Positions 6,001 through 9,000 of a DNA stretch of 39,549 nt are shown here, piece after piece. The stretch lies in IMG/VR virus record IMGVR_UViG_2526164601_000042; one strand, given 5' to 3'. Made by a program: the position numbers. This DNA comes from a virus. Taxonomy: Duplodnaviria > Heunggongvirae > Uroviricota > Caudoviricetes. Every line of letters begins with the position of its first letter. The first letter of the stretch is position 1.

Positions 6001-9000
6001 GCTTTTTACTGCCGCCATCACTGGTGCGCCCATTGCCAGCCCTGCAGCCGTGGTGGTGGCTCCGGCACCTGCAATACGATCACGCACCTCCAGTGAACGG
6101 GCATAACTGGCACGCGCCGCATTCATCCTGCGCTGAGCTCCCCCCAGTCGCTTCAGCCGCGCCTCCTGTTTCGACAATTCCTGGTTATAACGTGATGTTT
6201 CACGGGCTAAACGGGCAGTTGCTCCCGCATCGTCTTTCGCAGAAATTCCCGCCCGGTACAGTTCAGCACGCACAAGCGCCGTCTGCTGCTGCAGCTTTTT
6301 CTGGCGTTCTTCCAGGCGCTGAACAGCCAGCCGTTGACGGCCCAGAGCAACAACCTGACGTTGCGAAGGCGGCCCCATCGCTCCCAGTTCCTGACTGAGC
6401 AAATTTGCACGCTGGCGGGCATAGTTCAGCCTGTCGCCTAATTTCTGATTTTCTGCCTGCAGCTTTCGGAAGCTGTCCAGACTGCTCCCGGCCTGATCAA
6501 GCTGCTTTATTGCATCGCGGGATTTTTTGACAGCAGCAGCCAGTTCTCTTGAACTGGCCTGCGCAGATCGAAATGGGCGGGTGAGCTTGTCAACCGCATT
6601 AAGAATGACCTGCAGACGCAGGTTGTTATCACTCATCGTTGGCCCCGCTTCTCTGAATCGCTTTATACCGCCATTCCAGCACTTCGGTCAGCGGCATAAC
6701 GTCAGTAACGGATGGCGGCCAGTGAAAAATGGTGGCGATATCTGCCACCAGATCGTCAACCGTCAGGCTGTCGGTAAACCGGCAAGCACCGACTTCTTCA
6801 ACAAAAAAGTGACAACCTCAACCGACATGGCAGTGAGATCTGCCGGGTCCATCTCTGCAATTTCCTGTGCAGTCAGTGCCGGACTGGAGATGCGGGGGAT
6901 CACGGTCATCATCGCGTTTACATCCATATCCATAATGGCCTGCAGGCGTGTACCGCGCAGCGCACCGGACTGCGGTTTACGCAGCACAATTTCGGTGATT
7001 TCTGTTTTACCGCGCTTGATGGGGGTATCCAGTTGAATGGTCTTTTCAGTCTGCTTATCGCTCATTTTGCTGTCCTGTCAATTGGGTTCTGGCGCGGTAT
7101 CCCGCGCCGTTCAGATATATCAGAGGCCGAGGGCGTTGCGGTGCGCTTCCATCAGGTCCACACCGTCCACAATTTCCACCATGTTGATAAGGTCCACTTC
7201 ATAGAGCACCTCACCATTGATGGTCAGCTTCGCGTAGCTGTTGGTACTGGTCACTTTGGTGGTGTTGCTTTCGCCCGTCTTCCACTCGCCGGAATCCACT
7301 TCTTTGTGACGTCCACGCACGACAAGCTCCACGGCCTGCACTTCCCCGGTATCGTCACGCTGAATAGAGCCGGTAAAGCGCAGCTGGATGCCATCCACCG
7401 TGGCTTTACCCATCTGTTTAAACAGCAGCAATTCAGTACCACCAATGGAAAATTCTGTGTCCAGCGCACTGTCATCAAGCCCCAGATCCACATCCACCGC
7501 ACCCGGCATTCCGCCGCCGCGATACTTCTCATATTTGCGGGTAAATTTCGGCAGCGTCAGCGACTCAACGATCCCCTGCCAGTTGTTCCCGTCGTTAAAC
7601 AGGTTCAGGTGTTTTAATTTGCGTGGTAAAGCCATGTTGTCCCCTTACGCGCTGACCTGGCTGGCGAAATTCACCAGGTACTGATCGGTGATGCGCTGAC
7701 GCAGCATCAGGTTTTCAAGTGGCGGCACTGGCGTGTAGTCGTAGTCGATGGTGAGTTTTCCGGCTTTCAGCGTGTCTTTGTCGTTCACCGACTCATCCAG
7801 CCAGCAATCACCACCAATGAGATAGCCCTGACTGACCAGGCTGCGCATTTTGGCGCGGATACCTTCGATAATGTCGCGGGCCAGCGACGGGTTAAGCGGT
7901 TTATCCACCGCCCACATGTGTGCTTCTGCCATCGTGTCCATCAGCACCTGCGCCGTGCGGGTGTAGTTTTCGAAGGCAAAGAGCGTGTCATCACTCAGGC
8001 AGCGGGAACCCCAGAAGCGGAAACCGTCTTTACGCACAAGCGTGGTGACGTCGTTCTGGTTCAGCAGACCTGCATCGGTTGCCGGGTCCTGCAGATCCCA
8101 GAACACATCTGCAGAAATTCCGGTGACACCGTTCACGCCCACGTTGGACAGGCTTTTGTGCCATCCGGTCTGCTCGTCAATTTTGGCGCGCAGACCAAGC
8201 GCACGGGCGGTGGCATATGCCGTTGCTTCGGCATTCAGCACCGTGTCCCAGCCAGTAAAGTCAGGCCAGATCAGCATCCCTTCGCGCTGGCTGAAGTTTT
8301 CGCGGTAAGTGATCGCCTCCTGCACTGTCTTGCAGCCATACGCTGACAGGTAAGCAAATCCACGCAGGCTTTGCGCCACGCTCAGCAACTCAGTAGCAAC
8401 GGCTTTGTTATCATGACCTGGCACGCCGAGAATGCGCGGTTTAACGCCGAGCTGTGTCTGAGCAGATAACAGGGCTTTCATGCCTGTTTTTTTCCTTCAG
8501 CGGTCACTGCACCGATGATATTGGTCGTGGTTTCTTCTTCCGTTTCACCCTGCGGCACACGCACAACAACGGTCACGGGTTTTGCCTGGTCAGCGATGGC
8601 GTCCAGCGAACGGGCCAGCGTGCCGGACTCACCCGCTTTACCGCTGGCAGTCAGCACATCAGTGATCAGTACGGGTTTATTAAGAGGAAACATTTTTGCA
8701 TCGGCATCATCGCCCGTGCAGACCATGCCCACGATGGCTGTGCTCACCGTGGTAATGGATCGGGTGCCTTCGTTGACTTCAACAACGCGCACCCCGTGGT
8801 GGTAATCCTGAGCCATAAGGCAGTCTCTCCGGTTGTAGAGGGGGTCTGCCTATGTTCTGGTTGATAAGTGCAGGGTGCACGCGATGGGATTTGTATGGAA
8901 AATGGCACAACTGAGATTTATGAAAAGTGATGGTTAGCAGTGCATTTAACTTCGTTGAAAGGCTGGGTTAATATAATTGGAAAAAAACATACATAAACGA

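Follow-up and report, generated by a model that had tools for sequence, protein, structure and literature searches.

Does the interrupted tail sheath gene of this prophage reflect an error in the sequence, a mutation that has cost the prophage its tail, or a site at which two reading frames are joined during expression? The window, by which we mean the whole stretch of 39,549 nucleotides of viral DNA that was analysed, carries the gene in two pieces that meet at a run of seven A. An earlier sequence-only reading had named the gene tail sheath FI and had left two explanations side by side, a sequencing or assembly error at a homopolymer and a genuine inactivating mutation. The window holds a P2-like (Peduoviridae) prophage with phage 186-type immunity, located beside smpB-ssrA and followed by a second integrase island, as is evident from how RefSeq annotates three loci that hardly differ from it. 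The features discussed below are given in Table 1.

Table 1. Positions in the window of the sheath fragments, their neighbours and the homopolymer runs compared.
Feature	Position	Strand	Remark
C-terminal sheath fragment, 278 aa, Phage_sheath_1 + Phage_sheath_1C	7645..8481	-	starts MKALLSAQ
N-terminal sheath fragment, 112 aa, Gp18_domIII_N	8478..8816	-	ends ...AEGKKQA*
A7 run in the sheath gene, one base short compared with all relatives	8487..8493	-	phase A_AAA_AAA in the upstream frame
Tail tube gene, intact, P2 FII homologue	7120..7635	-	directly downstream of the sheath gene
E/E' genes	6763..7065 and 6629..6748	-	GpE-family ORF follows in the -1 frame
Acyl_transf_3 acyltransferase, cargo gene	9139..10272	+	between tail fibre assembly and sheath genes
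A7 run, 3' end of the acyltransferase gene	10228..10234	+	control, not an error
138-aa hypothetical gene (WP_000448925.1 in relatives), in three frame segments	34578..34990	+	no Pfam hit
T7 run, first contraction in the 138-aa gene	34624..34630	+	T8 in 14/14 other genomes
T7 run, second contraction in the 138-aa gene	34737..34743	+	T8 in 14/14 other genomes
Intergenic A7 run	35033..35039	+	8 in 12/14 comparators, 7 in one, 10 in one

A Single Missing Base Divides the Sheath Gene

Two ORFs of 112 and 278 aa were found in different frames at the place of the sheath gene, as had been described from the sequence, and our own reading of the DNA confirmed that the frame breaks at the A7 run. On the plus strand this run appears as T7; on the coding strand its context is GAAGGAAAAAAACAGGCATGAAAG. 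The TGA that closes the 112-aa fragment is a product of the frame shift, and the ATG of the 278-aa ORF overlaps it as ATGA. While the window as given contains two ORFs instead of one of about 390–396 codons, the addition of one A at the run yields a single ORF of 390 aa (391 codons counting the stop), and one ORF of this size was also present in all relatives examined. The expectation that an eighth A would restore a single product was therefore borne out, but the product is 390 aa long and not about 391 aa as had been proposed. Since exactly one base sets the window apart from three complete genomes in which the sheath gene is intact, the split is genuinely present in the given sequence and does not reflect a chance pattern of ORFs.

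The assignment to the tail sheath held up well. All three sheath domains in the repaired protein scored above their Pfam gathering cut-offs (Gp18_domIII_N, 43.3 bits against 27; Phage_sheath_1, 112.8 bits against 31.4; Phage_sheath_1C, 81.6 bits against 26.9). These domains are divided between the two fragments, and the break falls right where the Phage_sheath_1 domain begins. Aligned with P2 gpFI (NP_046778.1, 396 aa), the repaired protein is 67% identical over its full length (393 columns), colinear across the break and free of gaps at the junction; it is 6 aa shorter than gpFI, a difference that lies within a variable loop. The position of the gene fits as well. According to the ORF list of the window, the RefSeq annotation of near-identical loci and the P2 record, the sheath gene comes first and the tube gene FII directly follows, just as FI opens the F operon in P2. 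E/E', the tape measure gene (T), U and D come next in synteny with that operon, so that the order FI-FII-E/E'-T-U-D-ogr is common to P2 and the window. Both also carry a non-essential cargo gene upstream of FI, fun(Z) in P2 and the acyltransferase in the window, whereas the immunity region of the window is of the phage 186 type (CI, CII, Fil), unlike that of P2.

The closest solved structure is the sheath of the R-type pyocin, PA0622 (PDB 3J9Q and others; E = 5e-69). The alignment runs through as one chain (residues 5-383 against 3-381), and the residues at the window's junction pair with GERTGLQALL, although PA0622 is a bacteriocin sheath rather than a phage sheath and is distant in sequence. 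By domain content, alignment and gene order, this is an ordinary gene of the P2 gpFI type. The idea that related sheaths are naturally encoded by two genes, which had been named as one of the findings that would overturn the frameshift, was rejected, as the relatives, P2 and the R-pyocin all encode the sheath in one gene.

The Tract Has Eight Bases in Related Prophages

Positions 1..18816 of the window are exactly contained in contig AIGO01000044.1 of GCA_000249975.2, the 2012 draft assembly of E. coli DEC9E, which was reached via the 112-aa sheath fragment. Reportedly, 454 pyrosequencing was used in the DEC genome project, and both flow-based and nanopore sequencing are known to leave homopolymer under-calls in the consensus. 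DEC9E (AIGO00000000) is an O26:H11, ST29, stx-negative strain of 1986 from Mexico, whose sequence comes from Hazen et al. 2012 (PMC5592225). In the same source frameshifts were described in its cas3 gene, for which the authors independently suspected sequencing or assembly errors (PMC5592225).

In the complete genomes of DEC9B (CP074760), 7_33_46A and F2_407_2_2 the tract is A8 and the sheath is the intact 390-aa protein WP_000046147.1. Over 1301 nt across the sheath gene the missing A is the sole difference between the window and these three genomes. The surroundings correspond too: in these loci the acyltransferase gene lies upstream of the sheath gene, the genes for the tube, E/E', tape measure, U and D lie downstream, and the prophage is integrated beside ssrA, all as in the window. 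Where these loci have A8, however, the window has A7, and its ORF is split into 112 and 278 aa.

The same held in a wider set of genomes. The sheath gene is carried by about 980 of the 5426 RefSeq complete genomes of E. coli. The best 60 and the best 40 of these roughly 980 matches were all one base longer than the frameshifted query, and no 100% match to that query was found among these listed matches. We also read 24 contigs, which gave eight distinct places where the 377-aa acyltransferase allele is that of the window. Each of the eight has eight bases at the sheath tract, and the additional base is its only indel relative to the window over 4–7 kb; one of the eight differs by a single substitution besides. 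The A7 state is exceptional even inside its own haplotype. In the protein collection, the repaired sheath protein was present on 336 contigs and the exact 278-aa fragment on four. The indel thus lies inside a long homopolymer and is absent from independent, near-identical assemblies, as would be expected of an artefact.

We consider it highly probable that the A7 of the window is a homopolymer under-call in the consensus of the 2012 DEC9E draft and that the true tract is A8. Under-calling of 8-nt A/T runs would have entered the draft consensus, so that A8 was read as A7. The prophage would then encode a normal 390-aa sheath, identical to WP_000046147.1, and would have no biological defect.

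The deletion could instead have happened in the cell, by replication slippage in A8 that removed one base in the DEC9E prophage. We regard this as unlikely, and we give equally little credence to its consequence, a 112-aa N-terminal sheath piece that is possibly accompanied by an independently initiated 278-aa piece. Indels are known to concentrate in runs of A or T, it fits this view that E. coli genes avoid A7 and U7 (PMC4066793), and a silent prophage gene would presumably be under little selection in a lysogen. The allele is absent, however, among the best-matching RefSeq complete genomes listed, the eight places with the window's own haplotype all have A8, and the source is an old draft assembly in which frameshifts elsewhere were already suspected. 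Were the mutation real, contractile tails would no longer be built and the prophage would have taken an early step of decay, which would still be routine prophage decay at a mutation-prone run.

Further Contractions in the Same Assembly

The whole window was aligned with the three near-identical complete genomes. Among the four sequences 20 columns were variable, and all five indels were of one type, with seven bases in the window against eight in the relatives, in A/T runs. Run expansions in the window or indels outside homopolymers were not found in this alignment, and fourteen 7-nt runs had the same length in the window and the three relatives. Three 8-nt runs were kept in the DEC9E assembly, A8 at 1421..1428, C8 at 24014..24021 and one A8 in the left flank.

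The indels were then polarised with outgroups, and 14 other genomes were checked at the runs beginning at 34624, 34737 and 35033. After polarising, three 8-to-7 contractions remained private to the window, every one of them breaking an ORF, and there was no other private indel. Besides the sheath tract, these are two T8-to-T7 contractions 113 nt apart, both in the 138-aa gene. This gene is intact in 14 of the 14 other genomes, and its exact product occurs on at least 1000 contigs; a look-up across other datasets found no record of the 34-aa fragment of the broken gene. A contraction of the same type thus recurs twice in one conserved gene, as would be expected if the shortened sheath tract were an artefact.

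The remaining two indels are of a different kind. The intergenic run at 35033 is naturally polymorphic and can be assigned to neither error nor biology. At the 3' end of the acyltransferase gene, the A7 form of the window gives a protein of 377 aa, found on 89 contigs, and the A8 form gives a protein of 368 aa with a different C-terminal tail, found on 235 contigs that are mostly O26-like. A length of 377 aa is also that of the acyltransferase homologues in Citrobacter and E. fergusonii, and the allele was found in strain FDN-24. From these lengths and counts, A7 in the acyltransferase gene is genuine and widespread, and the A8 of the three closest complete genomes is a derived, real allele. 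The view that all five indels of the window are errors was accordingly withdrawn for these two runs, the one being a real allele and the other polymorphic in the outgroups. Of the five differences in run length, two are thus genuine natural polymorphisms, which shows why every indel should be polarised before it is taken for an error.

The private contractions bear directly on the choice between error and mutation. An error is favoured because one process explains three frameshifts in conserved genes, the lack of other types of indel and the published suspicion of errors in this assembly. The window resembles the under-call artefact in that private one-base losses in 8-nt A/T runs shift the frame of conserved genes, whereas a mutation in the cell needs three independent frameshifting 8-to-7 deletions, two of them in one 417-nt gene, in a lineage with no more than five private substitutions in 39.5 kb. 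Nevertheless, the length of two neighbouring runs does vary among natural isolates, which speaks for a mutation, and this real run-length polymorphism nearby, at the acyltransferase and 35033 runs, weakens the case for an error. The case is also weakened by the three 8-nt runs that are correct in the DEC9E assembly, unlike what uniform homopolymer under-calling would give.

Other Assemblies With a Shortened Sheath Tract

Apart from DEC9E, the exact 278-aa fragment was found in three Logan assemblies, SRR094967, SRR1786094 and SRR34878295. The first of these has zero substitutions relative to the window, but four more of its runs, 5 to 7 nt long, are contracted. Homopolymers are clearly under-called in its reads, which indicates that under-calling reads do yield the A7 sheath allele; SRR094967 may be DEC9E's own data. 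In SRR34878295 the prophage is a mosaic at a different attachment site, and an extra G6-to-G5 contraction breaks its tail fibre gene; no near-identical reference for this contig was found among the complete genomes. SRR1786094 has the A7 sheath allele and no other defect within 8.5 kb. The last two are read-archive assemblies that show A7 in the same sequence background as the window, and this recurrence weakens the error reading and counts in favour of a genuine mutation. We had also considered SRR1786094 and SRR34878295 to be error-prone because they share both the sheath and the acyltransferase contraction, and rejected this argument since the acyltransferase A7 is a real allele. Only two observations point to error-prone reads, namely the G6-to-G5 contraction of SRR34878295 and the four additional ones of SRR094967.

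A comparable loss occurs in other P2-like prophages, where the tract reads GGT AAA AAA ACA and a contraction from A7 to A6 results in the same 112-aa fragment. The A6 allele was present on at least 69 contigs of such prophages, and this, too, weakens the error reading. Several of the A6 assemblies are visibly full of frameshifts, others look clean, and some of the contigs may come from accurate platforms. Probably, some real minus-one alleles at the sheath tract exist in nature. In an anchor-based comparison of run lengths in ten other split-sheath assemblies few runs were comparable, and the contraction was again A7-to-A6 in the GGT variant.

Two GenBank entries for "complete" E. coli genomes with a split sheath, CP121673.1 and CP042645.1, also have many other broken phage genes, those for the capsid, baseplate J, tail fibre and tape measure. 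They look like uncorrected long-read assemblies, and their broken genes imply that a split-sheath fragment in the databases partly marks assembly quality.

Between the two explanations left side by side at the outset, the error is favoured by the private contractions and by the A8 of the relatives, and a tail-defective prophage is the less likely branch. Given that the window matches the draft contig, differs by one base from its relatives and has 8-to-7 contractions at other runs as well, we infer that the contractions arose in sequencing and not in the cell. Most probably, the organism itself has no such frameshift in its sheath gene. The case matters chiefly for quality control, since a prophage that is intact but for one frameshifted structural gene is readily called a "defective prophage". 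Here this call is most likely wrong, because the same one-base contraction is found in other 8-nt runs of the assembly.

Recoding at the Sheath Tract

A slippery run raises the further possibility that the two frames are joined during expression. The A7 run could be a functional recoding or contingency site, where the ribosome slips by -1 on A_AAA_AAA, transcription inserts one A or tail production is reversibly switched on and off, or the two pieces could form a working split sheath, acting together like TssB and TssC of type VI secretion. We find such readings scarcely credible, even though the run itself conforms to the slippery pattern X_XXY_YYZ: counted from the ATG at 8816, the bases 8493..8487 fall into the zero frame as A_AAA_AAA. 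Were the ribosome to slip by -1 there, or the mRNA to contain one A more, the protein made would match the wild-type 390-aa sequence exactly. In one IS cluster this heptamer, when stimulated by a stem-loop, has been proven to direct -1 frameshifting, and in E. coli genes A7 and U7 runs are avoided (PMC4066793). The ATGA overlap, together with GAAGGA upstream, could in addition permit a restart on the second piece.

The phase of the heptamer is to be expected by chance, however, because any one-base deletion in GGA AAA AAA A leaves it. The in-frame state is the rule, in the listed matches of the roughly 980 genomes as well as in P2 and in the pyocin sheath, and A8 itself is not conserved, most relatives having GGT AAA AAA ACA. 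Neither a conserved out-of-frame arrangement nor a conserved slippery site was found among the homologues. A search for a stimulatory RNA structure downstream was negative, as the folding energy of the 87 nt is -21.3 kcal/mol and shuffled versions average -21.4 (z = 0.03). In dnaX, a spacing of 10–14 nt is known to stimulate -1 shifts, whereas the AGGA at the sheath tract directly adjoins the run. Moreover, the sheath is needed at about 200 copies per tail, which would be beyond low-level slippage. A programmed -1 frameshift was therefore rejected, as the tract is not conserved and the fold is no better than shuffled sequence.

The same operon offers a known site for comparison. The tail chaperone gene of the window has the P2 E/E' signal T_TTT_TTG intact and in phase (6808..6802, minus strand). 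This -1 frameshift site is, like the sheath run, an in-phase slippery heptamer of the F operon; unlike the sheath run, which is not conserved as a slippery site, it is conserved and serves two required products.

A related reading keeps the deletion real and makes it common: A7 would be present in DEC9E and other lysogens, the tract being hypermutable and silencing tail production of P2-like prophages. We judge this to be very improbable. If it were true, the "pseudogene" would be leaky and easily reverted rather than dead.

Further Observations on the Prophage and Its Neighbourhood

With the under-call as the preferred explanation of the sheath tract, some other features of the window and its relatives can be described in their own right. 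Four loci that carry the window's acyltransferase allele (L036, L037, L040 and L041) show real decay via large deletions. Among the changes are missing sheath, tube and tape measure genes, a fusion of tape measure and gpD, and a GmrSD-type gene in place of the tail fibre gene; the 5' remnant of the sheath gene in these loci still has the 8-base run. Decay of relatives in nature is compatible with a genuine mutation in DEC9E, though it proceeds there by large deletions. The acyltransferase gene as such is rare, being present in only 5 of 5426 complete E. coli genomes.

The lysozyme gene (16944..17456, minus strand) differs at position 16966, with C in the window and T in the three closest complete genomes. 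In the latter the change creates a TAG, which leaves a lysozyme of 163 instead of 170 aa; the window encodes the full-length protein, as do other P2-like prophages.

Directly after the prophage integrase lies a gene for a 401-aa protein (31775..32980, plus strand) with no Pfam or PADLOC hit. The integrase island contains a pair of genes for a HATPase_c-type ATP-binding protein and a Response_reg_2 protein (35063..38531, minus strand), for which there was no PADLOC hit. The 401-aa protein and this pair may be candidates for cargo or defence genes. Between ssrA and the ogr end of the prophage, a 160-aa hypothetical protein is encoded (1184..1666, plus strand), which shows weak similarity to PDC-S48, a PADLOC candidate system, in the C-terminal part of the latter (E = 1.8e-7).
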